Origin: Gnetum montanum | Lineage: Eukaryota; Plantae; Gnetophyta | Direction of reading: 5' to 3' | DNA: 64,000 nt | Assembly (NCBI GenBank): GCA_015680685.1 | Contig: MNCI01001825.1 | Coordinates: forward strand, 1,287,876-1,351,875 | Shown: piece after piece, positions 6,971 to 36,760 of the stretch | Layout of the letters: each line of letters starts with the position of its first letter | Numbering within the stretch: the first letter of the stretch is position 1 | Made by a program: the position numbers and the translations under genes | Notes under the pieces: model-generated | Database searches by the model: none | Told to the model about the DNA's origin: nothing | The model's input: only the letters and a program-made list of their open reading frames with translations

Positions 6971-6993
6971 GTTGCTGATGCCGCCGTTGTGCT

Positions 6994-9900: not shown

Positions 9901-10474
9901 TCCGTATTTCTCCCGTTTTCTTTAAAAATACAATAATGTTGGACACACACTCTAAGTAGTTGACTACATGGATGAAACTAGCTTGATATAGCTTGGTGAT
10001 TTCATCCCTCATGGCCAGTGCAATTTCTGGTTTAACTTTTCAAGCCTTCTGCCTGACTGCCTTCATGTGTGGGTCTAAGACAATGTTATGCTGAATCAGT
10101 CATGGATCTAGACCCAGCATGTTGTTGTACAACCATGCAAAGACATTGATGTTGTCTTGTAGAATCTTAGCTATGTTTTTATGCATATGTGTATCTAGGA
10201 GGGAGCTAAGTCTTAATATTTTCATTTCCCCCTTTGACGTAGTAATGGGCGTCTCGATGAGAGGATCCTCAGTTACATCCCCAACCTCTAAATCTAAGGC
10301 TTGGGCCAGATGCTCGAGCTAGTCAGGGGATGCTTCTAAGGCTGCTATGATGCTCGTCATGGTCGACACCCAGTTGATCATGTTTGGATTCAATTATCTC
10401 TTGATCCTGCCCGATGGCCCCGTTAATGTTAAAGGCATGGAAAGGTCATAATGGATTTCCATCTCCTGCTTGAC
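6994..10474 (-). pseudogene. pol: pol of element A: RT - RNase H - archaeal-type RNase H - integrase, disrupted
   Basis: ORF fragments: IRICIDFWDLNK, LSFMDGFSEYNQI, YVDDIAV (RT); YLTTSD, VYYLSH (RH); CTNNMVEYEGL, IWGDSQLVVNQI (aRH); HEGLCSGY, WGLDLIWP, EYFTKWVEA, YYPQENGQAEATNK (INT). Confidence 0.93.
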
Positions 10475-11370
10475 CTATCATCATAAGACGAAAGCCTAGT
10501 TAACTGGTGTCAGTAGAGCTCATGTGTAATTGAAAATTTGCAAAGTAGTGACGAAATGCAGCTTGTGAAGTGTGGTGATGCAAGGATTGCAGGTTTGCCA
10601 AGGCACAAGAGCATAGAACTGCTAAAGGTGTAAAACTATAGATGTAACGTATGAAGCTGTGTGACTGTCGATGTGCAAGTGCCCAAACTACTAGTTTAAT
10701 GTCATTTTGTACTGCCAGATTACGATATGCAAGGCTTTAATCATGCAAAATAATAATATGTGAAATGGGAAACTTTGAGTATGACTAAAATTGCTAATGC
10801 AGAAATTCAAATTGCAGACATGAAAACAAGAAACCGCTAGAAATCGCGACACCACCAATGCGAAAGAAGATAAAAGAACACTTACATAAGCATGTGATGT
10901 TGTTAGTTTAATGTCATTGCCGACCGCTAGGCATGCAACTATGCTAGGGTTACTTAACTTGAGGTTTTTTTTGGATCAGTCATATTGTGATTACCAAGAT
11001 TACTAGTTTAAGGTCTTTTCAGACCCTTAGCCCAAAACAAATATATTATTATTATTTTTTTTGGGAAGGCAAGTAATGGGCTTGAAGCGTGTCAAGGTTT
11101 TAATGCTAATAGTACCAAGATGTCGTGGAGAGCATGCTACGCTGTGTGGTGCACTCTACCTTAATCGAAGAGAGAGAGAGAGGAAAGTTTCCCCCCTTCT
11201 TGTTATGACAACCATAAATAGAGGTTAATTCCTAGCAACTTTGCCATTTTTTTACTGTAACAGCGTAGAGCCTACATCGGAGCACAAGGTGATTTCGGAT
11301 CACGAGGCAATTGTGTTGATTGACTAGCAAGGCAAGCTTGTACAGCGAACAATGTAAATCAGCAAATGAG

Positions 11371-11481
11371 ATAGGCTCCTAAAACTCATCTAGCACTTGC
11401 AAAGGTTCAAGAGGTGCAGAAAGCTTTGGAGCGTGCGCCACAAGCACATGTTGTCGCGCGGAGGAGCACACCGTTGACCTA
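11371..11481 (+). pseudogene. Exon 1 of the antisense accessory gene of element A
   Basis: Reads APKTHLALAKVQEVQKALERAPQAHVVARRSTPLT, homologous to exon 1 of B and C. GT donor at 11482. TATA-like CATAAATAG near 11213. Confidence 0.6.
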
Positions 11482-11583
11482 GTAGGTTACTGTGTCTTCT
11501 TTGCTTTTTTTTCCGTTTTGCGCTTGCCGTCGTTTTCTGCTCTTGTTTTACATCTTGTTTGTTCTGCGTTCTTTCTTGGCTAC

Positions 11584-13204
11584 TGAAACACCCCAAAAAA
11601 CATGGGGTCATTCTTACTTCCCCAGGCCCTTGCATTCTGTGCAACACTATGGCAGTTTATCAGGAGGAGAACATTCTGAGTTGAGGCCGGCCAGTTTGGC
11701 AAATTTTCTACTTTGGGCATGAACAAGCTCCACAGGTCTTCCTACCTATCCATCCAAGTAGTTTGCCCAGCTGATAGCCTACTCAGAAACGATGAGCAGA
11801 GTTGGTAGTAACATCCTAGATGTGCAAAATAGTTTGGCAAGTTTTCTAAGTCATGAAGTCTGCTACGCTACGCTATGCCTTGTAGCATAGCAAGCTTCAA
11901 AATACGACGGCAGAACAAAGTGCTACGCTATGCTATGCCACATAGCATAGCATGGTAACAGCTTCAATACCACTCCCCTCACCAAATTTCAAGTTCTGCA
12001 ATGATGTCCCTTTCTGTCAGGAAGCGGTGGACCATGTCTGCTGCTACGCTACGCTAAGCTACATGGTGCAGTGAGGCGTAGCAATCCTGCGAAAGAGACA
12101 AAAGGTAGCTCGAAGGGAAGAGTCAGCTGAGTTTACAAAACTTGCATTGCAGGAGATAAAGTTTGCGAATTGGCAAAACTTTCACAACTAAGGCCAGTTG
12201 CTACGCTACGCTACGCTACATAGCATAGCAGAGTGTAGCAAACATGTGACATATAGTAGAATGCATAACAAAGTGCTATGCTACGCCAAGCACACTACAC
12301 TAGAGAGCATAGCGAAGCATGCAGGTGGTTGTGTGACATCAATGCACTTCACCTAATTGGATCATTGGCACACATCTCTAGATGCCAACGGTGCAATTAT
12401 GGCATAGAAGATGCACAGTTGTGGCATGATAGACTTACAGCACAACAGTCCTGCAGGTTCAATAGTCATACGTCGCATGTGTAGCACCAACAAGTCAAAG
12501 TGGGCCCAAGGTATGTGGCATCAAACCGCTCTTTCACATACCCTTAGTCCTATAAATACCCCAACAAGCAGTATTTACCTCCTCTCCTGGAAACCCAAAT
12601 GACTTGGCAACAAAAGGATTCAAAAAGAGATTAGCAAGTTCAAATTCTGAAATTCTAGCATTCATAGCTCTCTTCTTGATACACTGTAATATCAAGCATT
12701 GTAAGCTTTCTATTTGAGACTGCAAACAGTTAGCATTTTGTTATACTCCTCTTCTACTGCCTTGGTAGAAGTCATACATGGTTAGCACCTAAGTCCACGC
12801 CCAAGCACATAACCTGTTTTGCTCGTCTCAGTTACTCTTGGGATCTCTACATCCCGCCACGCCGTGCAACTGACCGTATCCACCTAGACAGGGCAAACTT
12901 GTAGCTTCAGAGCGGTGCATTTTTCTAACTGTGCTTTGCTTTGTTTCCTGCTTATTGTCGCATTATTCTCCCTGCTTTATTTACCTTCAAGCATTACTTC
13001 GCATTTTCATTCTTTTTTCCAAATATACATTGCAAAAGGCTATATAGACACTGATGTAAGTCCCTGTTTGATCAACCAGATCATTCAGGGCACCCTATAC
13101 TCGCACAAACACCCAGCATGACCCTCCTGTGGGTACGGGGTTGAAACTGTCGTGCCCGCCGACCCCTCGATGTTTTCTAGCCACCAACATTTTCAGTCGC
13201 TACA
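11584..13204 (+). repeat. 5' LTR of element B
   Basis: TGAAACACC...GCTACA, with TATAAATA at 12551. Homologous to 28382-29991 and to the LTRs of A. Confidence 0.95.
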
Positions 13205-13210
13205 GTTTTC

Positions 13211-13227
13211 TGGCGCTAGAAGGAGGG
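13211..13227 (+). promoter_or_regulatory. Primer-binding site of B
   Basis: TGGCGCTAGAAGGAGGG, 6 nt after the LTR end and shared with A and C. Cognate tRNA not determined. Confidence 0.85.
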
Positions 13228-13329
13228 CCCTTTGGTGCCTTTTCCGTGTGTCACGATAGTTCTGTGGGCCTTCTGCACCCTAATACACATAAGCGTAAAT
13301 GCAACACCCTCTTGAGGTTGTTTGCACTT

Positions 13330-13970
13330 TGTGCAGTGTAGATCAGTCACCTCAACTGTTCCTCGGGAACCCCACAGATCATAAGGCCTCGGATCGCCAA
13401 CTAACTAGCTCACCTTACAGTTGTCTTGCATGCACTCTGTACCCCATCTTGCATGGTATAGACTAGTCATCTTGATGGTCCCTCAAGGATCCTGTGAGAC
13501 ATAAAGTCTTCCTAACTGCTAGTTAGCCTGCTCATCTTACAGTTGCCTTGCATGTGTTCGGTACCCCATCTCACGTGGTATAGAGCGGTTGCCTCGACAA
13601 TTACTCAGGGATGCTGCGAGACACAAAGCCTTCTTGATCACTAGTTAACTATCTCGTATTATGGTAATCTTGTAAGCCTCCTACACCCCGATATGCATTA
13701 GCGTAGACCTGACACCCATCTGTGTTTGTTTACGCATCATGTGGTGTAGATCGGTCACCTCGATGGTTCCTCGGGAACCCTATATGATATAAAGCCTTTG
13801 ACTATCAGTTGACTTGCCTTCCTATCTTATGGTAGTCTTGCATGTACTCCATACCTCATCATGCACAGGCATAAATGTGATACCCTTTAGTAGTTGTTTA
13901 CACTTTGTGTGGTATGGATCAGTCGCCTCAGTGATTCCTCTGAAATCCAGCAAGACGTAAAGCCTTCTTT
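13330..13970 (+). repeat. 5' UTR tandem repeat of B, ~121-167 bp units, about 5 copies
   Basis: GTGGTRTAGATCGGTCACCTCGA...GGAACCC...ATAAAGCC variants near 13331, 13452, 13573, 13740 and 13907. Confidence 0.75.
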
Positions 13971-14039
13971 TTGTAGCCTTTCAATCTCTTTGTTTGTTTC
14001 ACATTTCTTGCACTTTTCTGCATAACTACTTGTTTAGTA

Positions 14040-17000
14040 ATGGCTTTTTCAACTACCGCTATTGATACCTCCAACGTAGAGGTACCCTTCACGGTTAAAG
14101 GCACCACTGGTGCCGAACAACTATTGAACCCAACACTGGAAACACGTTGATGCCTCAAAATCCAAAACCAAGGACCTAAGGGGTTGGCCCAGCAACATGA
14201 GCATTAGAATTTCCTCTGTGCAAAGGTGTAGGCTAATCTGCCCTTGGATTTACATGAACTCAAATAAAAATGTAGCTTTGAGTTCGCTTATTACAACAGG
14301 GAGGAATTTGTTCCTACCCTCGGTGTTCCTTTGGTTTTGACACAAGCATATCAAAGGCTACTAGACCAATTAATCCAGTTGGCTACACTTAGGAAGCAAC
14401 AGGACACTGTGTCCAACCAGGACTACCCCTTTCAAGATGGACAGGAGGAACTTGATTCCCAATCTGATGAGGGAGGTCAAGCCAACTCCGTTCCTATCCT
14501 ACCTATCCAGCCTTTCTAGGCCAACCCGTTGTCTATCACCGCTCCCTTTGCCACCACACTTATGCTTTGGTAGCCTACAATCGCAACTGCAATGGGTAGT
14601 CGTGCCACATTCCTGGCGTATCATCACCCTTATTCCCCAATTGCATTTGCAGCAACTATACCCCCACAAATTGTTCATCAACATATTCCTACAGTGCATA
14701 ACATGCCTGTCACGGTTACCCTACCGCATGTTCACACTGTACCTACATCACAATTGCACATAACTGCCATGACAATTCCTACGTACATGTATATTCCATC
14801 CACTATGGCAGGCCCTGGCCCATCCGCATTATGGACCCTATTTACCTCTTAGCCTATTCTACAACCGTCGCAGATGTCTCACTACATTCGTGCTCAGACA
14901 TACCCAACCCCGCAAATGGTACATCCTAGCATAGGCCCATGGTCTGTCCTGTCGGTGACCCAAAAGGTCTATTCAGCTGCTCAACCCATTGTTACTACTC
15001 TAATAGCACCACCCACCAGGTGGTGGATGACGCAAATAGCACCTCTAGTGGGGGCGACCCCAATGGCATTGTCAATGAATCAGCCCGCCACCACCACCAT
15101 GTCGCATATGGGAGTTGCCTCCACAGTCCCTCAATCGTGTACAACGTCACCAAGTCTTCACCTAGCGTTTCAGCTCATCCAGACCCTCATTGAGGAAATA
15201 AAATGTCTTAAAGCTATTAGGTCTGACATGGTACAAGTCATGGACTTTTATCAGGATGACCCCTTCAACGCTACAATTCCTACTTTAACATTACCCCCCA
15301 GGCTGTCTCTCCTGCACTTTACAAAGCACGATGGGGAGGGAGATCCCAACGCGCATCTTGTCACTTTCAGGTCTAAGTCTTTGCTATTGCAACAATGGCC
15401 ACACACAATCATTTGCATCTTTGCCATGTTCCTAGCCAGAAAATCCCTAGATTGGTACCGCACATTGCCACGCTCATCCATTTCAACTCTGGAGGAGCTA
15501 CTGACCCTATTCGTGACACACTTCAAGTATAACTTGAAGCCAGAAACCACCCTAGATCAGTTCATGAGCATGAAGCAAGATGCACTAGAACCAGTCTAAA
15601 AGTTCATCCAATGTTAGAGCGCAACACTTAATGAAACCCATGAGCCCATTGCGGAGGCCCACCTGCTGGCTGTCTTTAAGGGTGTAGTAAACAACTTCAT
15701 CAAGTCCAAACTATATTACCTCACTTCTTGGTCTCTTAGTCAGGCTTTCGCTCAAACTAAGAGCATACAAGATGCAGCTAAAGCAAGCAAAGACCCGACC
15801 TACATCGCTTACAAAAACACCTTTGCAAAGAAAGAAAAGGGTAAAGCCCCAACAACCATAGTGGCTGCTGTGGTGGCCAAGCCCAAGCCCAAGCCTAGCG
15901 ATAGCGGTAGCAAGAATAACAAGAAACCACTACCACCGGCGGCTAACCCTGCACCCTAACTGAGCCACGTGCCACAACCTATTGCACCTGCACTTGAGAC
16001 ATCTACACAACCCAAATCCAACTTTGAGCGCAAAGATCGTTCGAAGTACACCACACTACCTCTAAAGCCTTCAGAACTCCTGAAGCAACTGTTGGCAGTG
16101 GGATACGTCCAACACAAGTAGATGTCGAAAGAAGCAAACGCAAGACATCAATGCTATTGCGAGTTCCTTAGGAATTCCTCATTGTCCCTGCCCAATGAGC
16201 CTCCTGTCCCTAGGGATTTCAAGCTAGACAGGTTTTGTAACTACCACCAACTATGTGGTCACACCATGGATTATTGTCTATTTTTGTACGACAACATTCA
16301 AAGATTAATCGACCAGGGAAAACTAAGGTTAGACGAAAGCAATCCAGTATGCCCTGAAAACCAATCTATGTATGTCTATATAGATCCCCTCAACGCCAAA
16401 AATGCCGATTATGTAATCAGTGTCATCAGCATTGACAATGATCGTAGGCCACCCCGCCAACCATTTGTGATCCATGTGCCTCAACTTAGTGTACTAGCAC
16501 CATCAATGATTGGTCCAAGCCTGCAGCCGCCCTTCATCCTGAAAGTCCTGCCATAGGAATCCACCTTTGCATCGCTTATTGAAAAGGCCGTGCAGTCCTG
16601 TTAGTTGATGCCTCTAGCTCCATTCATCATTAGGGGGCTGACGCCCTCGACGGCCCCTACCTTGTGCAACAAAGTTGAACAACCTCCTCACCCCACGAGC
16701 TGAGAAATCCACTTAGTGAGTGAGACGTTGAAAGGAGGTATTGTCAAGGATATCCCCAAGCCCACGTCTTCATCCCCTGCATTCGCACCTTCACCCTCAA
16801 GGAAGAAGGTTGACATGACTATGCAACCTGCATCACCCTGCAAAGAAGGATCTAAATCTAGATCCAAAGTCACCTCTCCTCAAGAGATTCGTCTTCTAGG
16901 ACGAATCGAAGAGGAAGAAGATGTCAAACAAAAGGATAGTCGAGACTTTTTGGACACCCTCACTTAGGTCAAGCAAGTTCTAAAGTAGAAAAATGCTACC

Positions 17001-17861
17001 TTGAGCTTGTACAACCTAATCATGACATCTGTACCCCACCGAGAGGCTCTAGTCCACATGTTAATGGTGATTCTGGTCGACTAAGACATGCCAGTGGAAG
17101 AGGAAGCAATCCACTCGGTAATGCTCCCCTTTGTACCCACAGAGCTCACACTGCCTTCACTAACTTTTAGTAATGATGCCATTAGGAAAGACCCCGAAGG
17201 GGACCAAGTGACCATGGCACCTCTCTTCATCACAATTCGGGTCGACCAACATCGGATCCGAAGGGTACACGTTGATGATGGGGTTGCCACCAACATCATT
17301 CCCTTCCCTATTATGGACAAGTTGGGATTGGTTGACCAGATCAAACCAACAACGACATCGTGTTTGAGGTCCTTCAATGGGGCACACATCCTTATGAAAG
17401 GCATAGTTCACATAAACTTCATAGCAGGGGATCAGTTTCCCATAGACGCAACGCTCATCATAGTCAAGGAAATGCCCAAGTTTAACTTGATCTTGGGAAG
17501 ATCATGGTTAGCGCAACTTAGGACTATCTCCTCGCCTATAGACTAGGAGATCCACTTACCATACACAAGTAGGGAGGTGGTAATCCATGGTGAAAAATTA
17601 GCAACGCAAGCGATCAGCAACGTAAACATGGAACAGGGCTCAGAGGTTACAACCTCTAAGGAGGAAGCACCTATTCATGCATGCATTGATCATTCAATGG
17701 AAGGGTCGGCTCAACAAGTTGACTCCCAAATCAAAAACACATGGGTTGAGTTGCCCTTCCAAGCAGAGGATAGCGATGTGAACGAGTGCCCTGGTGAAAC
17801 ACCTCGGTCCTATGTTTTAATCAACCCACGATGGGTCAAGAAGCAGCTACACATAGTGTAG
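14040..17861 (+). pseudogene. gag: gag-protease of element B
   Basis: DGEGDPNAHLVTF...SLDWYRTLPRSSI (retrotransposon gag), FCNYHQLCGHTMDYC (Tat-type Zn knuckle), VHVDDGVATNII...FNLILGRSWL (aspartic protease). Frame ends at KKQLHIV*. Several in-frame stops. Confidence 0.9.
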
Positions 17862-17954
17862 CAACCCTACCGCATCTTGCCAAGTTTCCATCCCTTGTAC
17901 ATTATCCGTTTCCTTACTTTGTTAGTGTGCCATCATTCTGGCATGCTACACTAA

Positions 17955-18120
17955 CAGCCTGAAATGGCCTAAAACTATCATCACCATTTTTTTCTTCATT
18001 AACGTGTTATCTCTTTTTGGACAATGGCTCGAGATGGCCTAAAACTAGCATTGTTGCTTTTTCGCTTTATCCTGTTGGCACGTTATGCAATGGCCTGAGA
18101 TGGCCTAAAACTAGCATACG
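17955..18120 (+). repeat. Short motif array (GATGGCCTAAAACTAGC), 3 copies, between the gag-PR stop and the 3' end of the antisense gene in B
   Basis: Copies near 17964, 18033 and 18099. Confidence 0.75.
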
Positions 18121-18281
18121 AGAGCATGAAAACTTTACATAGTAGACAAGTTAACCCAAAACTAGTTTCTTTCCTGAAGCTTCTTTTATTATTCAAAATC
18201 CTCGCTTGATGGAAATGTTTGCAAAACCATTACAAAATTGCAAAATTTTAGTATCTCAAAAAAAAAACATATCCCATGCTG

Positions 18282-21200
18282 TCATGGATTGCTATCATTT
18301 TCATCACCTTCATCATTTGCTTCCGCTTCATCTGCTCGCACATCATCCTCTCCTACATTGCTGCCTGTCGGTTCTCCATCCCCTCCCTCTATGGGCCTTG
18401 CACCCTCATCTAGGGCCTGCATCATAGGGACGAAGTAATCATTTAGGGCAACAAATGCAAACTCTAACATAACATAAGCATCTACATAGTAAAGTGACTA
18501 ACCTGGGAGGGGCTCATGTGGGTCTCAAGAGGTATCCAATCTAGGCCGAGCCTAAGGCGACGCTAAATCTCCTCTGTCGTAATGTCCATCCAACGCCTAT
18601 CACTAGGTTTAGCATTCATAGTAGCAACTTTCTCCCTTTCCACAGTCATCCATGTTAGAGGTCCCAGGGAAAGGGAGGCAGTTGCAGTATCCCCTATAGG
18701 AAGGTCCACCTCCAAGTCAAAATATTTCATGACCTTCACCTACTCCTTGAACTTAGCGTAGGACTCAGAAGCACCGATGGCATTCATGAATGCTTCATAT
18801 GTAAATGCCTCCACAGCAGGGTCTTTGTACAGTCTTTGATGGGTGTCGTTCTCCAGCTTGTATACATGTTTGTGGTCTCTCTGGGTTCACCCCCATTCAA
18901 AGACTTTAGCACTGATATCTTTCATATCTTGGCACTTCTGGGCTAGTAGGTCTATCTGCATCTGCTGCTTGACTATCTCATGAGTGGACTCTATTCTAGT
19001 TAACGATAGTCCAAAACCTGGCGTAATCATCCACAGAATTATGCACACCCTCAATGTCAGGGTTGCAATTTATGAGGAAGTCGATCCTCGACCTAAGATT
19101 CTCCACCTCAATGACCAGCTCAACCTCTCTTTGCTTAGCCCTGTTGACCCATTTCCATAGGTCCTCGATGATGCACCTACACTCCCACAGAGACCGTGCT
19201 GAGTGCAACATACACTTTTGAGCCCCGTCGAACATGTGACGAGACACCTCGGTTATGTCAAGTGAGAGTGTAGGCACGGCGCCAACCTTCATGGGTCATG
19301 CTAGGTTCCATTTGAGCCGAGAAGCTACGTCAACACAAAAAGCATAGCAATCACGTTAACTTAGCAAAATTAGCAAATTCAGAAACCCCAGCGTAGCAAC
19401 ATAGAAGCATTTAGCACTACTAGTTACCCGTGCAAGGGTCTTCCTACTGTAGGCGTTTGATCATGTCATCCATGAGTCCCTGTATGAATGTAAACTTATC
19501 AGGGATCTTGACCCACAACTCCACACGAATTGGAGGGGTCTTGTGGCATTAGCAGTAGCACCTGTTACACAAGTAAGTATGTTAGCAATAGCCAAAATGG
19601 ATTTTGATAAAGCGGACATCCTACCAACTCACTAGTGTTTGGCTACGCTCTCTCCTCTTGCTGACATAGGGTGACAATAGTAGCCTCGGTGGAGGACCCT
19701 GCCAAGTCCATACAAGCCCCTTCCTCACACGTTGGTGCCTTTTCTTTTAGCATCCTTTTTATTCAAAGGAGGTACCTCTTCGTCGGTAGGAGGAAGCTCC
19801 CTAATGACGAGAGCCCCTGCCTTAGAAATAAGAGCTCCCTTATTCCTTACAGAGGCCCTTTCCTCCAAGACTGGGGCCTCTACATCTTTATTCATTGTCC
19901 CCATCCTAAGGGCCAACATTTTCTCATTAACTTCTTCTTCATCTTCTTCTTCCTTTGCTAAGAAAAAAGGCATGTTTATGTCGATTCAAAACAAGTTAGC
20001 TCGAAATAGATGCTACGCTACACTACCTAGTGCAGCGTAGCGTAGCAAACTATAACAAACCAAGCATTACACAAAAATACCTACCAATGGGAGGTTGCGT
20101 CCTCTGCAGCTTGAGCTATAGTCTTCATCCCTCCTCTTCATGAAGGGTTTCCCTGGCTGGGGGAGGTCTCTTCTTCTGCAATGCCTTGGGCACAGTCTTA
20201 GTTATGAGATGTTCACCCCATGTCATGCTACCAATTATGATAGGGGGTGTCTCTCCCACGCTGTCCTGGCCACGAATGTTGTGAACCACCAAATCTTTAG
20301 TCATTATAGACAACGACTCCTCAACCACTTTTGGGGGATCATGGGCTCACATAGTCTAGAGGACCTACCAAATCTATGGCTTGGGAATCTATTCACGATC
20401 TTGCACGGAATAGACTCCATCCTCCTAGATCACCAGAAACTCTACGAAGCACCTCAGGCAGCCTATGTAGAAGGAATAGTGTATATTAGAGCGGTACTCT
20501 ATTTGCTCACGGAGCCCCAAAATCTCAGCCTATAGGCCACTACATAGGAAACTTTCCTAGTTATAACGGGCCCCTTCTTCCATAACCTCCTGCATTACCT
20601 AGGCCTAATCAAGCCCTAGGACCTTCCCTTGGGTGAGTAGCTGAGGGAATGCATGGGCATGCGCCATCCTTAAGCTTTTCCATAGAAAACCCCTTTCACT
20701 CCTTAGCAAGCCTCAGCCACTCCTCAATATGCTATTTCTGAAGAGTTAACTCTTGCTTGCTCTTTGACACTACAGGGGTGTTGTCGGTAGGAATGCCGAA
20801 CAGATCCGTAAACAACTGGTCATTGATTTCAATGACAACCCACATGCCCCGCACATATGTGAGAAAATGGCTCATCCTCCCAGAGAAGGAGTTAACCAAG
20901 GAAAGCATCTTGGTAGCAGAGACACTTAGATTCAGGGCCATGAACAAATCCATAAGTCCTACCTTTCGAACTTTCTTGAGCAAAGAGTCTAGGATCCCTT
21001 GTTCTAACCAACTCTGGCTCACCGCTACTTTGCCATATTTGAAGTAAATGTTAGCCCCTTGCCTCTCAGCAGTTACCACCATCACCTCACAAGGCTGCTT
21101 TGCCCCTGCAATGATTTTCACAAAACACACTTAGCATAACGAAGTAGAAAATGCAAGGATTTCCAAAAACACTTGAGCATACGACATTCACCTTTTAACC

Positions 21201-22665
21201 CACCAGGTCTATACGAAAATGGGAATAGTGGGAGTTCAACTAGAGCTGCTTCAACCATAACTTTTTTGAATGGTTCCTTCCACTCCTTATCCAGCCAACC
21301 CTTCTCCCTACACTAATTGTAGAGAGTGTAGAGCATGCATAGGTAGCCACAATATTCTCCTCCGCACTGGCCAATCACTCCCGCCCGCAGGTTCTTAATA
21401 GAAGTAAACTCCCGTAGGGCTAGCTGCACGGTAGCTAGCATCCCTGGTGTGTCATGAACCCCATCACCATCAATATAGAACTTGATAACAAATGCACACC
21501 ATTAAGCCTTTGGCCGGTATGGCCAACGTTGCACAGCAAAGTAAAGCAAAGATACAAAACTCACCCACTAGCACAATAGAAAGTCCCCTATGGGTTTTAA
21601 AAGTACGTCTCCATGTGACGTGAGAGAAACAATGTGTTGAATTGGTGATAGCATTGGTATTCCAGCATGTCCCAGATCTAGGCCAAACGCCTCAGCCCTG
21701 TTGAGTATTGGCTAGATCCTCCTCCCTATTTGCTCATGATTTCCTTGTCAGAAAAATATCTTAGGATGCCTTGATTTGCCCCTGGCAGCATGGCTTCTAT
21801 TATGCCGGATGCCTCCTTCTCCTCTAGGGAGGACCAAATAATCATGCTAAAGTGTTTGAGAAGGAACTGCAAGAAGTCTTGTGCCCCCTCCCTAAACCAA
21901 ACCGCTTGATCTCCCAAACATATTGGGGAAGTAGGAGCATTGGCCACAGGTCTACTCACATAGCACAAGACCCCGCTAATGTCCAAAACGATCAACTGGG
22001 ACCTTGGTCCTACTCTACATGCCATAATCAACAAATGTATACATTTAACTTGAACGCAATACACACGCAACATAGAAATGTCTAGCAGTCTGTATATATA
22101 GCATAACATAACCCTCTGCCGGTACATAGCGTAGCAAGGGCATTGAAGCCTAGTATAGCAAGAATGTGTGAATAAGCCTAGCGTAGCAATAAAATAATCG
22201 ATGATACGCCTTAAAAAAACATGCGTCGCATTGCTACGTCACATCATGGCCTGGCCCCTTTAAGGGTTTTATGTTGCAGCATGCTAAGGTCAAGCGACTT
22301 AAACTACCCTAGCCCCTGCAGTTGTAACAACCATGGTGGTGGTGGTTTCAGTGGCCTTGCATGCAATCACAATGCAATGTTTATGCATCTGCCATGGCCA
22401 AGACAGTGACCGTGGCGATGCAAAGGTCAAAATAACACAACTACAGAAAATGAAAATAGCCAAGAATGAACATAAAACAAACAAGACACAAACCAGGAGC
22501 AGAGAGCAATAGAGAGTGCAACAAAAAAAAAGTCAAAAAGGATGGAGTAATTCACTGGGTTAACGGCGTACTCTGCCGTACTGCAACACATGCTTGTGGC
22601 ACGCGTCCTAGGGTCTTCTTCACCTTGTCAACCTTGGCAAGCACCAAATGGATCTTAGGATCCAT
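18282..22665 (-). pseudogene. Antisense multi-exon accessory gene of B: FCP1/NIF-like domain, plant-transposon-protein-like domain, acidic tract, coiled coil
   Basis: Exon 1 at 22665-22556 (MDPKIHLVLAKVDKV...TPLT). NIF-like exon 22014-21565. ORF pieces 21130-20732, 20328-20125, 19973-19725, 19292-18996 and 18470-18282. GT/AG sites at equivalent positions in A and C. Confidence 0.8.
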
Positions 22666-23556
22666 TGTCTTGCTTGTAGATTTATTCCCTTTGCTGTAGA
22701 AATTCGGCCTACTAATCGATCAACATAGTTGCTTTGTGCTCCGAAATCGCCTTGTGCTCCATTGAGAGTTTTGAACTCTTATGATAAAAATAGCAAAATT
22801 GCCAGGGTTTAACCCCTATTTATGGTTGTAATGCTAGGATGGGGAAACTTGCCACTCCCTCTCCAATTAATGCAGAACGTGCTGAACAACGTAGCATGCT
22901 AGCCACGACATAATAACACTATTAGCATTAAAAATTTGACACGCTTCAAGCCAACTACTTGCCTTCCCAAAACATAAGAAATATATACAATATAGTTGCT
23001 TTCAATAGAGGGTCCAAACAGATCTTAATCTAGTAATCCTAGTGTAGTTGCACCCCTCAGGGTCTGAAAAGATCCTAAATTAGTAGTTTCAACCCATTAC
23101 GTTGGTGGTTCGCAATGACGTTAAACTAACAACCCCATATGCTTACATCAACGGTTATCTCATCTTCTTTCACATAGGCAGTATCACATTTCTTAGTGGT
23201 TTCATGTTTCTATTTTTGCATTGGCGATTCGATACTTCTCATGTGCACAATTTTCTATTTTGTATACTATTATCTTACCTGTTAAGATTTTACATGTTGT
23301 GATTTGACAATCCGAAATGACATTAAAATAGCAGTTTGGCATTTGCGCATTGATAGTCATACAACTTCACATTTTACGATAGCAGTCCTATGCCTTTATG
23401 CCTTGGCGGTCTGCCATGACCCTAACTTGGCAAACTTGCAATCTTTACATCACCACATTTCGCAAGTTGCATCGCATCACTACTTTGCAAATTTTCGTTA
23501 CACATAATTCCTGCCTACGAACGCCTCTTAACCAGGCTTTCATCTTATGATGGCAG

Positions 23557-26500
23557 GTCAAGCAAGAGATGGAAATCCATCATAGCCTCTCCACACATTT
23601 AACATTAGTAGGACCATAGGGCAAGCTTGTGAGACTGTTGAACCCCAACATGATCAACTGGGGATCGACCACAACTAGCACCATAGTAGCCTTAGAAGCA
23701 TCCCCTGACTGGCCTGAGCATCTAGTCCAAGCCTTAGATTTAGAGGTCAAGGATGTAACCAAGGACTCTCTTGTCGAGATGCCCATAACCACATCAAAGA
23801 GGGAAGTGAAAACATTGAAACTCAGTTCCCTCCTACACACGCAAACACACAAAAGTATAGCCAAAGTTTTGCAAGACAACATCAATGTCTTCGCATGGTT
23901 GTACAATGACACGCCAGGTCTGGACCCATGGCTGATTCAGCACAACATCATCTTAGACCCCCACGTAAAGACATTTAAGCAAAAAGCTTGCAAAGTCAAG
24001 CTAGAAATCATGCTGGCTGTGAGGGATGAAATCACTAAGCTATACCAAGCAGGTTTCATCCGTGTGGTTGACTATTCAGAGTGGATATCCAACATCATTA
24101 TGGTTTCAAATAAAATAGGAGGAATATGGATCTGTATAGACTTCCAAGACTTGAACAAGGCAACTATCAAAGATAACTTCCCACTCCCGAGCATTGATCA
24201 ACTCATTGACACCATGGCTGGTCATGCTCTGTTATCCTTTATGGATGGTTTCTCTGGGTACAACCAAATTCGCATTAACCCAAAGCACTAGCTGTCAACA
24301 ACCTTCATGACCCCATGGGGGACCTTCTGCTATACCATGATGCCTTTCGGGCTCAAAAATGCTAGAGCTACCTACCAGTGAGCCATGACCTACATTTTTA
24401 GTGACTACCTCCTAGGAACATTAAACAATGACATGGATGATATATTAGTCAAGCCTAGGAAGGCTGCTGATCACCCATGTGATCTGGAGGTAGTCCTCAA
24501 ATGCTGCCAAATGCACAATTTACACCTAAATCTTAAGAAGTGCATCTTCGGGGTCAAAACTGGATGCATGTTAGAATTCGTAGTATCAGAGGCTGGAATA
24601 CGAGTTGACCTTGACAAAGTCAAGGCCATCATAAATTTAACGCCTTCCACAAATCTCAAGGAGTCACGTGGTTTACAAGGTAGAGTGCAATTCATTTGAA
24701 GGTTCATAGCAAGGTTGATCAACAAGTTACACCCCATGCAACATCTTCTAAAGAAGGGGATTAACTTTGAATGGACAACCTAGTGTCAACAAGCCTTTGA
24801 CGATCTAAAGAAGGAGCTCTCGCACCTCCCAACAGTGCACCCACCACAAAGGGACAAGCCCTTCTTCATATACCTTGCCACCTCTGACACATCCATAGCA
24901 GCACTAGTATGTCAGAAGCAAGACGATGGTTCTGAGATACTAGTGTATTACCTGAGCCATGCACTAGTAGCATACGAGGCGAAATACAATGAAGTGGAAA
25001 GGAACTGCCTAGCCTTAGTGTTCACACTAAAAAAGTGGTAGCACTATCTATTCTGTACTACAACCAACATCATTTGTAAAAGCAATGTACTCCAGGCCAT
25101 CACTAGCAATCTATACGAAAGTAGCAAGATTGCCGAATGGAAGGCAATAACCACGGAATTCGACCTACGCTATGTAAGTCAATCATCGACAAAGGAAGAA
25201 GCCATAGCGACTGAACTCATGGCCTCGCCAGTCGACGACTAGGCAACCATAGACCCTGAATTCCCAGACGAATACATAAGGAATGTCAACATCATCCCAT
25301 TGAATTTCAAAGCCACCTTACACTTCAACGGTGCCTCAACCATGTGAGGAAGTAGCACTGCTTCCACAATCACATTTCCCTCTAGGGAAATGCATCCATT
25401 CGCTTATCGATTTACGTTCCCTCGCACCAACAATGTGGCAGAGTATGAGGAGTTACTTTGAGGCCTCTTAACTGCCCGAGCACTGCACATACAACACCTG
25501 GCAATCTGGGGAGATTCACAACTAGTAGTGAATCAAATCACCGAGGTCTACGCTTGCAAGGCTATGCACCTACAACTCTATTGCAACCTCGCAAAGACCT
25601 TGCTTAAGCAATTCACAACCACAAACATGCAACACATACCACACAATGAGAACACCGTGGCAGATGCCATAGCCACCTTGGTGTTAAACATTCCATCACA
25701 TTCCCTAGAAAACCTGCCAACCTCAATCATAGAATGCGCAGAGCCTATCACTCAAGTGGAACACATGGCATTTGTCAGTGCTAGAGATACCCAGGAGTGG
25801 TACGACAACATTAAAGCTTATCTACAACATGGTGAATCCCCAGGTGGATTAACATCAGCCCAAAGAGATGCAATCCATAAGCGTGCTAGGCAATACGTGC
25901 TCATGGGAAATGATGCCCTGTGCCAATGATCCTATGACGGGATATTGCTAGCATGCATGGGTGGTGAGCAAGCACAAAAGGTAGTTAATGAATTTCATGA
26001 AGGGCTGTGCAGTGGACACATAGCACCCAGGGCTATGGCTGCCAAAATCATATGCCTAAGGTACTATTGGCCCTACATGGAGTGTGAATGCTTGATGAAA
26101 GTCAAGATATGTGACACATGCCAAAGATACACAAATCTCATACACATAGCACCTACAGACCTACACCCAACGCAAATCACACAACCGATCCAATAATGGG
26201 GACTAGACCTCATAGGGCCTATCATGCCTAAGTCTTCCACGGGGAATAGCTTCACTATCACTGCCACAAAGTATTTTACCAAGTGGGTGGAAGCCATTCC
26301 CCTGAGGAAGAAAACTCCATAGCAAGTTTGCCATTTCATCCTAGATAACATCGTAACAAGGTTTGGGCTTCCAATGACTATTGTGACCAACAATGGACCA
26401 TAGTTCAGCAGTATGGAAACCTGAACCTTCTATAGCAATCTAGGCATTAAACAATCATTTTCTTCCCCTTATTATCCATAGGCAAATGGGCAAGTAGAGG

Positions 26501-27039
26501 CTACAAATAAGTCCATCATCAACTTGCTGAAACGGATGCTAAACAACAGCAAAAGGCGATGGCATGAACAAATCCTCTACGTCCACTGGGCCCACCGAAT
26601 GACGTGCAGAACTGCAACAAGTAAGATCCCTTACAGTCTTGTTTATGGATCTGAAGCTGTATTGCCTCTTGAGTTGCAGGTACCCTCACTCCGGATGATC
26701 CTTGCGGATGTCATGAGCGAAGCCCAGAACAACGAGTCATGAACCATTGATCTCAACTCAGTGGTGGAGGAGCATGCGTAGATGCTGAGATGCATCAAGT
26801 ACTACCAGAGCAAGCAGCAGCAGAAGCACCGAGAAAACCCACACCGGAGACCAGTGCAAAAGGGAGACCTCATCCTTAAGATTTTCTGCAAGCACATGAG
26901 CAAATTCTCAGCCAACTGGGAAGGTCCTTATGTTGTCACTAAAGCCTTTAGGAATGGATCCTTCAAGCTAGTGGACATGGATGACAATGAGCTCATCAAC
27001 TTAGTAAATCACTCATATCTCAAGCTGTACTATGTCTGA
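23557..27039 (+). pseudogene. pol: pol of element B: RT - RH - aRH - INT
   Basis: CIDFQDLNK, LSFMDGFSGYNQI, DMDDILV (RT); YLATSD (RH); LHFNGAST, TNNVAEYE, WGDSQLVVNQI (aRH); HEGLCSGH, CDTCQRY, KFSANWEGPY (INT with GPY/F). Confidence 0.94.
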
Positions 27040-27059
27040 AGCACAACGGCAACAACAAA

Positions 27060-27380
27060 CACCATCTGCTACGATGATAAACTGGAAATAGCACCAAGCA
27101 AGGTTCACAATGACAATAAACTAGTAGCATCAAGAAGCGCCCGCTACGGCGTAAAACTAGCTGCAACCATCCGCTAAGACGATAAACTAGCAGTCACACC
27201 AAGCACCGTCTGCTATGATGTAAAACTAGCACTGTTAGTCCACTATGACTATAAACTGGCATAACACGTCCGCTATGATGATAAACTAGCATGTACTGTC
27301 TGCTGGGATCTTAAGCCAGCACACTGGTCTGCTGGTACCTTAAACCAGCACACAGTCCACCAAGACCTTAAACTGGGTTC
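27060..27380 (+). repeat. ~30-bp degenerate tandem array in the 3' UTR of B
   Basis: About ten units with a GAYGAT/GTAAAACTRGC-like core. Confidence 0.8.
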
Positions 27381-28365
27381 GCGTTGCATCCCAACATGCA
27401 TCAACATTGAATGCACATCGAACAGGCGAGCGTGATGCCAATGCATGGGTGGGTCGTCGCATGCTCTAGAATGTAGTTCATGATGCAATGGGAATGCGGT
27501 CGGGAACATATGCAACGCCACCACCCTTGGCATCATGCTGATCCTCTGAAGATGTCATATGGCATCATGCTAGCCCTCCGAACCTACTGTGGCCATCGCC
27601 CATAGCCCTGATGGTGGTTCTTGGGCTAATTCCCGTAGCTGGAGTTCCAGTAGTATTGTGGCCTAGCCACAATATTATCTTCCCAATGCCTCGGCCTACA
27701 TGAAGTTTGGCTATTTGGTAGTTGATCCCATAGTCAAACTTAGCATGCATGTCTTAGGCGGGGATTCTAGTGCGTTTGCACCCACAACACCTCCTGGCAC
27801 CTCGGAGGCTAGCTCCTCCATGCTAGTGCTACCAAGGCCACTGCTAGCCTTCCTTCTTTGGGCATCTCACACCAACGATGATGCCCAAAAGTTGCAACAA
27901 TGCCAGTAGCTAGCAAGACCTTTGTCCCTATGGGCATGTCTTGCCATAGCAGCGAATGCTACTGCATCATGAAGCGAGTGCCTCGACTAACATGGCTACT
28001 TGAGAGTGCAAACTCCAGCACGTGCGTAACACAACTCGCTGCATGGAAGGTGTCTATAGGCAAGTCAAAACCCTTCATGGATGTAATGCAACTCATCCCG
28101 TGAAGGAAGCACCTCTCCTACAAGAGGTTGAAGAACAGCGCCAGTCAAAGATGAAAATGCAAAAGAGTCCCTCAGAGCACTCTGACGAGGGACTCTACTA
28201 AACATCATCTTTTCTCTCTGCCTTAACCTCTGCAAAACCAATGCAACACTCTCAAGTGCAGCCAAGTGATGTCTCGACACTTACCAAGTGAAAACCTTGG
28301 CATTTCGTCTGCTGCGGTGTTTCATTTTCTTTTCCAACATCTATTGAGCCTATTCTCCAAATGCC

Positions 28366-28381
28366 GACAAAGAGGGGCCAA
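28366..28381 (+). promoter_or_regulatory. PPT of element B
   Basis: GACAAAGAGGGGCCAA directly before the TG at 28382. Confidence 0.85.
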
Positions 28382-29991
28382 TGAAACACCCTAAAAAATA
28401 CGGGGTCATTCTTGCTTCCCCAAACCCTTACAGTCCGTGCAGCACTACGACAGTTCATCGAGAGGAGATCATTCTGAGTTTAGGTCAACTAGTTTGGCAA
28501 ATTCTCTACTTTGGGCATGAACAAGCTTCACGGGTCATCCTACCTATCCACCCAAGTAGTTTTCCTAGCTGACAGCCTACTCAGAAATGACACGCAGAGT
28601 TGGCAGCAACATCCTCGATGTGCAAAATAGTTCAGCAAGTTTTCTAAGTCACGAAGTCTCCTATGCTATGCTACACCTCATAGCATAGCAAGCTTCAAAA
28701 GATGATGGTAGAACAAAGTGCTACGCCACATAGCATAGCATGGCAACATCTTCAATACCACTTCCCTCCCCCAATTTTGAGTTCTATAATGATGTCCTTT
28801 TCCATCAGGAAGCAATGGACCATGTCTGCTGCTATGCTATGCTAAGCTACATGGCGCAGCAAGGTGTAGCAATCCTACGGGAAAGACAGAAGGCATCTCA
28901 AAGGGTAGAGTCAACTGAGTTCACAAAACTTGCATTGCAAGAGATATATTTTGTGAATCGGAAAAACTTTTGCAAATAAGACTAGTTGCTACACTACGTA
29001 GCATAGCATAGCATAGCAAATATGTGACATATAGTAGAACATACAACAAAGTGCTACGCTACGCCAACCACGCTACGCTAGAGAGCACAGTGAAGCATGC
29101 GGGTGGTTGTACGACATCAATGCACTTCACCTAATTGGACCATTGGCACACATCTCCCAACGTCGATGACATAATTATGGCATAGCAGACGCACAGTTGC
29201 GTCATGATAGACTCATAGCACAATGGTCCTGTAGGTTCAATGGTCATAAGCAGCACGTGTAGCACTAGCAAGTAAAAGTGGGCCCAAGGTATGTGGCGTC
29301 AAACCGCTCTTTCACATACCCATGGTCCTATAAATACCCCAACAAGTGGTATTTACCTCCTCTCCAAGAACCCGAATGACTTGGCAACAAAAGGACTCAA
29401 AAAAATAATAGCAAGTTCGAATTCTGAAATTATAGCATTCATAGCTCTCTTCTCGATACACTGTAATATCAAGCATTATAAGCTTTCTATTTGAGACTAC
29501 AAACAGTTAGCATTTTGTTATACTCCTCTTCTACCACCTTAGTAGAAGTCATACATGGTTAGCACCTAATTCTTCGCCCAAGCGCATAACCTATTTTGCT
29601 CATCTCGGTCACTCTCAGGATCTCTGCATCCCGCCACACTGTGTAACTGACCATATCCACTTGGACAGGGCAAACTTGTAGCTTCAGAGCGGTGCATTTT
29701 TCTAACTGTGCTTTGCTTTGTTTCCTACTTATTGTCATGTTTTTGGGCATTATTTTCCCTGCTTTATTTACCTTCAAGCATTACTTTGCATTTTCATTTA
29801 TGTTTCCAAATATACATTGCAAAAGGCTATATAATTGTCGACGTAAGTCCCTGTTTGATCGACCAAACCATTCAGGGTGCCCCATACCCGCACACACACC
29901 CAGCACGGCCCTCCCATAGGTACGGCGTCGAAACTATCATGCTCGTCAACCCCTCGGTGTTTTCTAGCCGCCGACATTTTTGGTCGCTATA
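28382..29991 (+). repeat. 3' LTR of element B
   Basis: Homologous to 11584-13204. Terminal CA is mutated to TA and followed by the TSD GCTAC. Confidence 0.94.
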
Positions 29992-30063
29992 GCTACCTAT
30001 GTTTTCTGGGGTCGCGTCATCTTAGCCTTTGCATCGTCATCACCACTATTTTGGTCATGGCAG

Positions 30064-31102
30064 ATGCATAAACGTTACATCATGGTTGCATGCAAGGCTG
30101 CTGAAACTGCCACCACCATGGTTGTTATAACCATGGGGGGTAGGGCTATCTAAGCCTCTTGTCCCTAGCATGCCATAACGTGAAACCCTTAGGAGGGCTA
30201 GGCCATGTGTGATGTGCAACGCGACACATTTTTTTTTGTTAGAGCATGTTGTCAATTATTTTTTTGCCATGCTAGGTTATTTGCATCTTCTTGCTACACT
30301 AGGTACGAGTAGAGAGTTATGCTACACTATCTGTTGCTAGATGTTGCTACGTTGCATGTGTATTATCTTTAAGAATGACGTTAGTCATTCGCTGATTGTG
30401 TCACGTAGGGCAGGGCGGAGATCTAGGTTGATCATTCTAGAAGTTAGAGGGCTTCTGTGCCATGTAAGCAGACCTATGGAAAATGCCCCTCCTCTTCAAA
30501 TATGTATGGGAGATTAAGGGGTCTAGTTCAGACAAGGGGCACAGGACTTCTTGGAATTCCTCCTTGATCATTTTAGTGTGATTGTTTGATCCTCCCTAGA
30601 GGAGGTGGAGGCATTCGACATAATAGAAGCCATGTTGCCTGGGGCAAGCCATGGCATTCTAAGGTTTTTTTACCGATGGAGCAGTTATGAGTAGGCAGGG
30701 AGAGGGACCCAACCAACACTTATCGAGGTTGAGGCGTTTAGCCTGGATCTAGGACATGCCCGAATATAGCTGCTATCACCAGTACAACACTTTATTCCTT
30801 GCACGTTTCATGACAACATGCTTTTAGAACCCACAAGGGATCATCTATTATGCTGGCAGGTGAGTTTTGCAGCCTTGCCCTATTATTTTGTGCAACGCTG
30901 GCCACATTGACCAAGTGCTAATGCTGATGTGTTTTTCACTAGGTTTTCTATTGATGACGATGAAGTTCACGACCGATCAGGTCAGCTAGCAACAACATGG
31001 CTAGCCTTACAGGAGTTCTCTTCTGCCAAGAACCTGTAGGTAGGGTTGATCAGCCAGTGTAGGGGGGGAGGGATGGAAAATCCTACCTACCCTAGCACAT
31101 TT
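30064..31102 (+). pseudogene. Exons 2-4 (part) of the antisense accessory gene of A, including the NIF-like exon 30409-30859
   Basis: Reads RLIILEVRGLLCHV...FRQGAQDFLEFLLDHFSVIV(W)SSLEE. Acceptor CGTAG at 30408, donor AG|GTGAGT at 30860, 83-bp intron to ACTAG at 30942. Confidence 0.78.
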
Positions 31103-32713
31103 TGAAACACCGTGGAAATTGTGAATTGGCCTCAGGTGAAGATTCACGATTCAGGCAAAATTTCGTGACAGAATTTCGGAAGGTAGAACAAGGGAAAGCA
31201 AGGCAAAACGGCACCCGGCATTAAGTCTCCAAGTTCCTTATAGATTTCAATTTTACTGTGTTTTCTGTCTTTACGCTACATTACACAACATAGCGTAATG
31301 ATGCTTAGCGTAATGTTTCTTAACATAGTCTGACATCAGAGGGTAACTTACTTCAACAGATTTGGTGAGGTTTAAGGCCTAAGCAACGTAATATGTGACT
31401 TCTCGCATATCCTACTAAGTCTTTTGTCCAGGGTTAGATTTACGCTCTGTTACGCAAAGCAACGTAATGAGCTTCAAAAATGTCAAAGGGAAAGTCCAAG
31501 GGAAGCGTGACAGATTGACCCCTTTCTTTTTGCAGATTGATCGCCTTACACTCGTTACGCTACACAGCGTACGTCAGCATAATTTATCACCAAGTTGATC
31601 ATTTTTTACGCTTCACTACGCTTTGCTGCGTAAATGAGCGTAAAATAGCTTGACCCACATTTCTATGCTTTGTTACGCTCGGCCATGTGACGCAGCGTAA
31701 ACAAGTGTAATACAGCATAAAGCCAGCAAAATAAGTTATGCATTTGCTATCCATACACACAATACGTTGATAAGCGTATTACGCGTAATCATGAAGCAGC
31801 CTCAGTAGAAGTGTCGACAGTGTACGTTGCAATGTGACGTGACATAGCCAGTTCGTCAAGTCAACGGTATCCGGAATGTTCAAGACACGTGTCATCAAGG
31901 CTGTGCCTTTTCTGCATATTATAAATACGTCAATTGGTAAAGAGAAAAAAAGGAATGGGGGAGGACTTTTTGGACTTCTTGAATAGAGAGCAGTGGCGAG
32001 CATCTTCAACTTTTGGCTATTATCATCCTTGAGTAGAAACAAGAGATATTTTTTTGAGCATTTCGGCAGCAGGAGCGATCATACCCTTTGGCGAAAATAC
32101 AGTTCTCCCATCGGTGATCCTTGGCAGTTTTGAGCAGAGACTATCTAAAGCAAAGAAGATAGATCAGAGATCGAGAGATCATCTAGTGCAGTTGGCAAGA
32201 TCTATTGATCATACACAGTTGGTTGATAGACATCCGAGCTTGACCTTCCTTACACTCCATCTTTGGCTTATAAGGTAGACCAAGCTCCATTCTGCACTCC
32301 TTGTTAAACTATTTTTTTTTCTTATTATTTTGTGTATGTTTCACACAAGATAATTAGAATCTTCTCATTGTAATTTTGTATACAAGATACTTGTTCCTTT
32401 GGGTTAAAGTACAGATCTGAAATCACGCATTTCTCTTAGATCTGATTCCCTTTGTCGCGTTAACGTTGTCATTATTGTAATTTATCCACATCGTTTTCCT
32501 CTACTTTTGCGATCTATCGAATCAAATCGCTCAACAAAACACCTATAATTTTCATCGATTTACTGATTTAGTAAGTCCCTGTCTGATCGACAAGACCATT
32601 CAGGGCACTGCGGATTTGTTTTCTCTAGCACAGCCCTTGCACGGATCCGTGGTTAAGACTGTGTACACAGATTTTGTTTGGTATTCCAGCTACCGACATT
32701 TTTCATCGTTACA
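31103..32713 (+). repeat. 5' LTR of element C
   Basis: TGAAACACC...GTTACA, with TATAAATA at 31920. Homologous to 47122-48727. Confidence 0.95.
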
Positions 32714-32719
32714 GTTTTT

Positions 32720-32736
32720 TGGTGCTAGAAGGAGGG
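32720..32736 (+). promoter_or_regulatory. Primer-binding site of C
   Basis: TGGTGCTAGAAGGAGGG, 6 nt after the LTR. Confidence 0.85.
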
Positions 32737-32962
32737 CCTAGGCTCCCATTCATATTTTTATGGGTAGCCCTGTAAGCTATCTATACCCGCATTGCCAAAA
32801 CGTAAACGTAATACCTCTAGGGGAGTTTAGAAAATCGTGCGGTATAGATCGGTCACAGTAACGATTCCTTTGGAATCCTACAAGGTAGAAAGCCTAATCA
32901 CGATCTTGCTTGTCCATCACCTTTTAGATCTAGTCATTTATTGCCATTAATCTACTTGACCA

Positions 32963-35900: not shown

Positions 35901-36760
35901 ACAGGCTCTAAAATAAAAAAATACAACGCTGAGCCTCTATGACCTGCTCATGACATCTCAAAAACACCGTGAGGCTATGGTCCACATGCTAACATCCATA
36001 CCTGTGGAGGAAAGCTTACCAGCGGCGGAGGAAGCGATACACGCTGTCATGTTTCCCTCCGATGCTGAGCGACCTAAACCTACCTCATTGACCTTTCATG
36101 ACGAATCCATCAAAGATGATCTTAAGAAAGGTCAAGTGACAACTGAACCCATGTTTATCACCATCAGGGTCGGTCAATACCGGATCCGTAGGGTGCACAT
36201 GAATGACAGCGCAGCTACAAATGTCATCCCTTATCCCATCGTGTATAGGTTGGGTCTGGTCGACCAGATCAGTCCCTCAATGACAACGTGCGTAAAGTTG
36301 TTCAATGGAGCATGGGTTCAGGTCAAGGGAATGGGGCGCATTGAATTTGTGGTAGGGGATCAATTCCCAACGGATGCTACATTCCTTGTCGTCAAGGAGA
36401 TGCCCGAGTTCAACTTAATTCTAGGGAGGTCCTGGCTAGCCCAACTGAGGGCGGTTTCGTCACCAATCCATCAGGAGATACATCTCCCTTACGCAAGGGG
36501 AGAGGTTGTAATATGCGGTGACGAAATCACCCCCAGGACTATCAACAATATCGAGGAAGAACGGGGTTCGGAGATAGAAACATCGGATGATCAGACCCAT
36601 CCCTGAATCCCTGAACAAACCAAAACGAACGATGATAGTCTAGCTTGAACCAACCTGCCATTTTAGGATGGTGGTGTGAAAGAGTCAGACTGCAAACCTC
36701 CCCATCCTTACACACCACTGAGTGTAAAGGCCATCAAGAAACAATTATGAATTAGTAATT
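32963..36760 (+). pseudogene. gag: gag-protease of element C
   Basis: YNGEGDPNAHLVTF, KALDWYQALPRS, FCDYHQLCGHKIDY, VHMNDSAATNVI, FNLILGRSWL. Ends near KAIKKQL. Confidence 0.9.

Follow-up and report, generated by a model that had tools for sequence, protein, structure and literature searches.

Can a retrotransposon keep a phosphatase-like domain under selection after its catalytic residues have gone, and what would such a domain do for the element? The question is raised by a stretch of 64,000 nucleotides of Gnetum montanum DNA (contig MNCI01001825.1, positions 1,287,876 to 1,351,875 of the forward strand; the window below), in which an earlier inspection of the letters, called here the sequence-only reading, had picked out three related peptides as a retrotransposon-borne domain of the NIF/FCP1 type (CTD-phosphatase family, HAD fold) with a degenerate active site. 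The analysis described here indicates that the peptides represent a real NIF domain, kept by selection and probably dead, which belongs to an unusual predicted antisense gene in elements of an Ogre-like lineage.

Three nested elements and their shared exon

The window consists of eukaryotic repeat DNA, in which the types of element and a depletion of CG and CHG point to a land plant. Self-comparison and analysis of the ends resolved three LTR elements, A, B and C (Table 1). Elements B and C sit inside A, and the insertion site of C is exon 2 of the antisense gene of A. The order of parts is the same in all three: LTR, PBS, gag-protease, a spacer of 5.1-5.7 kb, RT, RNase H, additional RNase H, integrase, PPT and LTR. 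The features of Ty3/gypsy elements were present (LTRs, TSD, PBS, PPT and the order gag-PR-RT-RH-INT), the PBS being one that may match tRNA-Asn. The additional RNase H was seen in element C as a Pfam RVT_3 match (43349-44170) preceding the rve match (44483-45067). By gene order and domains, A, B and C are placed as Ty3/gypsy elements with an Ogre-like layout (Tat clade). The identity of their Pol proteins is 72-73% between A and B and 62% between B and C, and the divergence within the LTR pairs means that the elements are all old and decayed.

Units of about 120 bp are duplicated in the 5' leader of B (13248-13965) and of A (56112-56499). On either side of the nest, two 269-bp LTR-like pieces in like orientation (3514-3782 and 63729-63997; 87% identical) possibly mark a fourth, outer element. 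The region 58300-63700 on the minus strand holds a decayed Ty3/gypsy element of a different lineage, with RT and RNase H matches at 60539-61048 and a weak Ty3 capsid match at 62921-63610. A 138-bp AT-rich tandem repeat of 5.6 copies (64-888) and an assembly gap of 439 N (2959-3397) were also noted. A metagenome scan with the RNase H ORF of C gave one locus from 36 candidates, a decayed gag-protease-like and RNase H-like sequence on a 5-kb contig (L001:2181-3432), 33% identical to that of element C.

Table 1. Positions of the elements, of the predicted antisense gene and of the 16-bp motif in the window
Feature	Position	Strand	Remarks
Element A	4197..58206	-	LTRs 58206-56540 and 5724-4197; K2P 0.16; 5-bp TSD; hosts B and C; layout as B
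Element B	11584..29991	+	LTRs 11584-13204 and 28382-29991; K2P 0.153; 5-bp TSD; PBS near 13211
Element B gag-PR	about 14850-17861	+	
Element B RT-RH-aRH-INT	about 23557-27300	+	
Element C	31103..48728	+	LTRs 31103-32714 and 47122-48728; K2P 0.088; 5-bp TSD; layout as B
B spacer	17862..23556	+	from gag-PR stop (17859-17861) to candidate acceptor before RT; 5.7 kb
C spacer	36751-41845		5.1 kb
B NIF/FCP1-homology domain, antisense exon 1	21565..22014	-	DISG; motif IV Ser-Arg
C NIF exon	40519..40968	-	DIVG; motif IV Ala-His
A NIF exon	30409..30859	+	EVRG; motif IV Ala-Arg; one frameshift near 30670-30683
B predicted intron 1	21482..21564	-	phase 2; A (30860-30942) and C (40518-40440) agree in position and phase; the B acceptor is degenerate
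B antisense exon 2	21192..21481	-	conserved with A and C; no family match
B antisense exon 3	20085..21105	-	conserved domain of about 230 aa and basic NLS-like stretch; C counterpart about 40067-39020
B antisense exons 4-7	18282..19957	-	acidic linker, short conserved exon, predicted coiled coil, acidic tail; stop 18284-18282
B antisense donors, region of exons 4-7	19632, 19427, 18502	-	
16-bp motif cluster behind gag-PR stop, B	17964..18115	+	
16-bp motif cluster behind gag-PR stop, C	36996-37147		
16-bp motif cluster behind gag-PR stop, A	52115-51998		
16-bp motif tandem arrays behind integrase, all three elements	6782-6923, 27146-27230, 45371-45846		

In A, B and C alike, the exon in question lies inside the spacer and antisense to gag-pol. 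The peptides quoted in the sequence-only reading were found at their places and coincide with exons bounded by AG and GT, each within an LTR element, so the domain is indeed carried by retrotransposons. The region 21546-22025 of B contains five in-frame stops, one of them inside the splice donor. Against the Pfam NIF profile (PF03031; curated cut-off 21.8 bits), the exons of B (E 5.8e-7, 29.8 bits) and C (E 7.9e-5, 22.8 bits) scored above the cut-off and the first part of the A exon below it (E 1.3e-3, 18.8 bits); no Pfam match was found for the second part of the A exon. A phmmer search of 1.84 billion proteins with the B exon, in which the stops were entered as X, gave 56 matches, none of them close (best 7e-10), and 54 of these carry a NIF domain. 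Together with the Pfam scores of B and C, this places the claimed likeness to NIF/FCP1 beyond chance. Identity between B and the matches ranges from 23 to 41%, and the alignments are colinear along the whole domain and have the motif L-D-x-x-G-x-L in common. When a profile of these matches was run on six frames of the window, only the three exons were found at E < 1 (4e-26, 1e-16 and 1e-15, the value for B being partly circular). Word-index searches, both with the B exon against longer proteins (423 candidates) and with the three-copy NIF alignment against proteins of near length (7786 candidates), gave nothing, and phmmer with the B exon alone found no match in the PDB.

An AlphaFold model of the domain was produced from an alignment of 37 rows, four of them pieces of the window and 33 homologues, and reached a pLDDT of 88. 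The model has a HAD Rossmann-like fold, as the sequence-only reading had expected, and its best Foldseek matches in the PDB were SCP1/CTDSP/CTDNEP1/Fcp1 (E 3e-6 to 1e-4; SCP1 E 3e-6, TM 0.63), with Tim50 (E 2e-5) and giant-virus NIF proteins matching too. Since the model is driven by the alignment of homologues, the fold match adds little beyond the sequence match. Searching the PDB with the NIF profile gave 16 matches, none of them of the DxNG type described below, and the closest solved sequence relative was UBLCP1. We regard the assignment to the NIF/FCP1-homology (HAD) family as virtually certain.

Relatives, active site and selection

Names were looked up for 30 of the 56 phmmer matches, and the named matches are plant and algal proteins called 'FCP1 homology domain' or 'C1271.03c-like'. 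Motif I reads DxNG in 46 of 53 matches and DxDxT in none. On sequence comparison, the nearest relatives are members of an uncharacterised C1271.03c-like DxNG subfamily, and not the SCP/FCP CTD phosphatases. Since this source family is already DxNG and without DxDxT, the loss of the second Asp would have been inherited and would not be a result of capture. The element copies have gone further than the subfamily (motifs I, III and IV are numbered here in what we take to be the accepted way). The Asn of motif I, found in 47 of 53 natural domains, is Ser, Val or Arg in the elements; the motif-III Lys (52 of 53) is Arg in A, B and C; the Asp-Asp of motif IV (51 and 45 of 53) is replaced by the three different pairs listed in Table 1; and the Lys after motif IV (49 of 53) is Thr. 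Retained in the copies are G, R, WS, an NTL-like sequence and NP, as well as the motif-II Ser in all three and the first Asp in B and C, which is Glu in A. As five active-site changes are common to elements so diverged from each other, they predate the split of A, B and C.

To judge from these residues, the NIF domain is very probably catalytically dead. The degenerate motifs DISG, DIVG and EVRG and the missing motif-IV pair, all named in the sequence-only reading, were read again from the alignment, and its view of a pseudo-enzyme stands as far as a probably dead domain kept by selection is concerned. It has to be amended on two points: the loss of DxDxT was inherited, the element's own further losses being those in motifs III and IV; and within the NIF/HAD family, which was correctly named, the nearest group is the DxNG C1271.03c-like one.

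Sequences of this DxNG group were found in plants, fungi, algae and environmental samples. They share the L-D-x-x-G-x-L motif with the element domain, whereas the latter lacks the Asn, the motif-III Lys and the motif-IV Asp-Asp, stands on a very long branch and is fused into a retroelement gene. SCP1/CTDSP, FCP1, CTDNEP1 and UBLCP1 have the fold and the Pfam family in common with the element copies, but they need DxDx(T/V) and the metal-binding Asp, both absent from the copies, and none of them is among the sequence matches. In a tree of B, C and 52 match domains, computed with A omitted, without an SCP/FCP/Tim50 outgroup and with the bootstrap not settled, the element pair stands on a branch of 3.35 changes per column without a resolved sister. 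The capture of the domain, likely from the DxNG NIF subfamily, would predate the split of A, B and C.

Among the matches, P0015 combines a DxNG NIF domain with a C-terminal region that was judged Ulp1-like by reading, Pfam giving no support for Ulp1. P0052, in the land-plant clade, has a degenerate NIF domain (EVEN, DTD), and in tandem proteins of Asteraceae (P0007, P0008 and P0014) the second NIF domains are degenerate too (DVSG, DIGG, EMDG). By these sequences, further decay within the DxNG subfamily has happened repeatedly, and the finding points to this subfamily as a widespread and uncharacterised one. A search by gene id found no functional study in the available text of PMC10924621 and PMC5485742. 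Among fungal NIF proteins, those with DXNXT have been assigned to the predicted pseudophosphatases (PMC13216928).

The NIF frame of A against B gave dN/dS values of 0.24 and 0.27, which shows purifying selection on the exon. Neutral decay after insertion is part of both values, and the true constraint was therefore stronger. Between B and C, protein identity is 47-49% and third-position identity 0.33-0.42, near saturation. The downstream antisense exons tested showed a selection pattern like that of the NIF exon. Stops common to two copies were counted at 6 of 517 codons for B and A and at 3 of 504 for B and C. A stop shared by A, B and C just before 'NP' was considered as the true end of the protein and rejected, since shared stops are frequent and selection continues behind it. 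Likewise, a conserved coding exon upstream of NIF was rejected, as no codon periodicity was seen and dN/dS was 0.5-0.7 in all frames. The evidence from selection, like that from the 16-bp motif described below, comes from three decayed copies.

The predicted antisense gene and its spacer

From its sequence context, the NIF exon is predicted to be the first conserved exon of a seven-exon antisense gene in the gag-PR/RT spacer, a setting that the sequence-only reading had not recognised. A, B and C agree in the place and phase of the GT donor after the NIF exon, and an intron of about 80 bases follows it. Altogether six GT donors recur at matching places in the three elements, and one acceptor each is degenerate in A and in B. 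The predicted product would have about 1000 aa, with an uncertain start codon, and would comprise the NIF domain, a short conserved exon, a helical domain of about 230 aa with a basic stretch, then an acidic linker, a predicted coiled coil and a tail that is also acidic. The basic stretch is NLS-like and was found in A, B and C, and no clear signal peptide was seen in the product. Exon 2 was considered as a C-terminal extension of NIF and rejected, being without a match to the C-terminal part of the subfamily.

The second domain, of about 230 aa, had no Pfam match up to E 5 and no match to the PDB or to a homologue, and a word-index search with it (7998 candidates) gave nothing. In the Atlas it matched hypothetical clusters from Streptophyta, one of which, at rank 3 (score 0.88), bears DUF1985, a domain of the plant mobile domain (PMD) clan; only 13% of the members of that cluster carry DUF1985, and the recognition is below threshold. 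The other half of the domain had no match in the Atlas, and a single-sequence fold (pLDDT 39.7) was unusable. A PMD-like second domain is taken as a lead only.

In each element a stop closes gag-PR, and ahead of RT there is a candidate acceptor in phase; we infer that the spacer is an intron of the Ogre type. About 8 bases are common to the candidate donor and acceptor in B (17832-17843 and 23554-23562) and in A (52247-52236 and 10477-10469, approximate), a likeness that is absent in C. It could be the target duplication of an insertion that made or widened the intron, or chance. RNA reads of four runs aligned to B at 80% gave three joints, none of them at any predicted intron, which at this low depth is evidence neither way; the reads on B were for the most part less than 90% alike (823 of 972, 298 of 352, 1704 of 2009 and 467 of 549) and come mostly from other family members.

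A 16-bp motif, with 13 matches against 0.09 expected, is clustered behind the stop of gag-PR in each element. A looser form of it, written after the strict matches and the repeat unit had been seen, gave 26 matches, which include the arrays behind integrase. The motif is conserved despite saturation of the synonymous sites between B and C.

Possible roles of the product

Our tentative preference, which falls somewhat short of being probable, is that NIF acts as a non-catalytic binding module in a protein, likely nuclear, that regulates the element, with the 16-bp arrays as candidate target. Unspliced sense RNA would then be the genome and retain the cassette, and spliced sense RNA would be translated to Gag-PR-RT-RH-INT. 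Because of the antisense orientation, the six introns of the gene would survive reverse transcription. The predicted product would be nuclear, and its HAD pocket, in which Arg replaces Lys and one metal-binding Asp, may hold a phosphorylated ligand or partner uncut, comparable to fungal Tim50. The arrays would serve as cis target, and through the product the element would control its own expression or gain protection from silencing. Use of the NIF fold without catalysis is known from fungal Tim50 (PMC8346121, PMC13216928), which is a mitochondrial membrane receptor and so a functional analogy, not the nearest relative of the element domain. A nuclear antisense protein has been described for Grande (PMC11963269).

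The sequence-only reading had suggested that the domain perhaps mimics or competes with Pol II CTD phosphatases. As such a decoy it would bind phospho-CTD and shape transcription through the element. A likely dead enzyme with a basic stretch suited to a nuclear protein would agree with this, as would the best Foldseek matches, but the model behind those matches was driven by the alignment of 33 homologues, the 16 PDB matches include no DxNG member, and all NIF sequence matches are proteins of the DxNG type and not SCP/FCP; the decoy is quite improbable. Alternatively, the product may work after transcription, in the particle or the cytoplasm, its dead pocket binding RNA ends, lipid or a host factor and its coiled coil oligomerising, and so help packaging, reverse transcription or, env-like, movement. 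Such a role is given a small but real chance, as basic residues occupy the former active site and the coiled coil with a captured domain resembles other extra ORFs of Tat elements, themselves of unsettled function (PMC4408406), although all copies have the NLS-like stretch and a clear signal peptide was not seen.

That NIF is still an enzyme of changed mechanism or substrate seems very improbable: the loss of both motif-IV Asp and of the motif-I Asn in all three elements and the Glu in place of the nucleophile in A weigh more than the first Asp of B and C, the motif-II Ser of all copies, the conservative nature of the change from Lys to Arg and the fact that some non-canonical phosphatases remain active (PMC13216928). 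The whole cassette could also be a passenger, for instance what is left of a DNA transposon or host gene after its insertion between protease and RT, useless to the element, with NIF only stabilising a fold or serving as a linker. The likeness of about 8 bases between donor and acceptor in A and B is what a target duplication would leave, and the NIF match P0015 ends in the Ulp1-like protease region mentioned above, again by reading and without support from Pfam. However, the duplication is absent in C, purifying selection was found on every exon tested and the splice donors recur though synonymous sites are saturated; the passenger reading, which may explain the origin of the cassette and not its retention, is judged rather improbable.

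The regulator reading can be extended to an undescribed Tat lineage with a seven-exon antisense gene in an Ogre-type intron, the product of which, a HAD pseudophosphatase joined to a PMD-like DNA-binding domain, would bind its own 16-bp arrays and counter host silencing. In this complete form it is unlikely. If true, it would be a retrotransposon-encoded parallel to the host PMD-phosphatase module. In the host, MAIN/MAIL1-PP7L and the PMD-PP7 fusion MAIL3 pair a phosphatase fold with a transposon-type domain in the regulation of genes and TEs (PMC7156037); there the fold is PPP and host-encoded, whereas here it is HAD and element-encoded, and the PMD identity of the second domain is only a lead.

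Most extra ORFs of plant LTR retrotransposons are without traceable origin or function. The one described here has an enzyme fold that can be recognised as host-type and that selection has kept after catalytic residues were lost, and the ligand of the dead HAD pocket and the candidate DNA motif would offer a concrete handle on extra-ORF function. NIF is absent from all 12 extra-ORF domain rows in Neumann's Additional file 4, for which E 1e-10 in at least 5 elements and ORFs of at least 250 codons were required, so that a gene like this antisense one would be missed. Nor is NIF named in the available text of a screen of 121 angiosperms (PMC9289625), the supplementary domain chart of which may bear on this. 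A literature search, with most subscription papers outside its scope, gave no NIF domain in a retrotransposon and no antisense gene between protease and RT. An intron-rich antisense layout in the gag-protease/RT spacer would escape surveys that search the regions 5' or 3' of the polyprotein for long ORFs without interruption.

The elements have in common with Ogre/Retand (Tat) the separation of gag-PR from RT, the order RT-RH-aRH-INT, the 5-bp TSD and the large size, and also an antisense ORF with a coiled coil and tandem repeats behind integrase (PMC6317226, PMC4408406). In contrast, the Ogre gag-PR/RT intron or spacer averages 274 bp and extra ORFs are found on the 5' or 3' side of the polyprotein (PMC6317226), whereas here the spacer of 5.1-5.7 kb contains a predicted multi-exon gene, antisense between gag-PR and RT. 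The PBS is of the tRNA-Arg type in 89% of Ogre elements and may differ here. In reviews, extra ORFs are placed mostly between pol and the 3' LTR (PMC7264820, PMC11963269). Domain capture by Tat elements is known for PMD, Transposase_28, a LOG-like domain and AlkB. The orchid Ogre-related elements with an AlkB demethylase (PMC9289625) are, like those described here, a case in which a Tat element took up a host enzyme domain and stably kept it; the AlkB domain is recent, near to host genes and active, whereas the NIF domain of the elements is old, highly diverged and likely dead.
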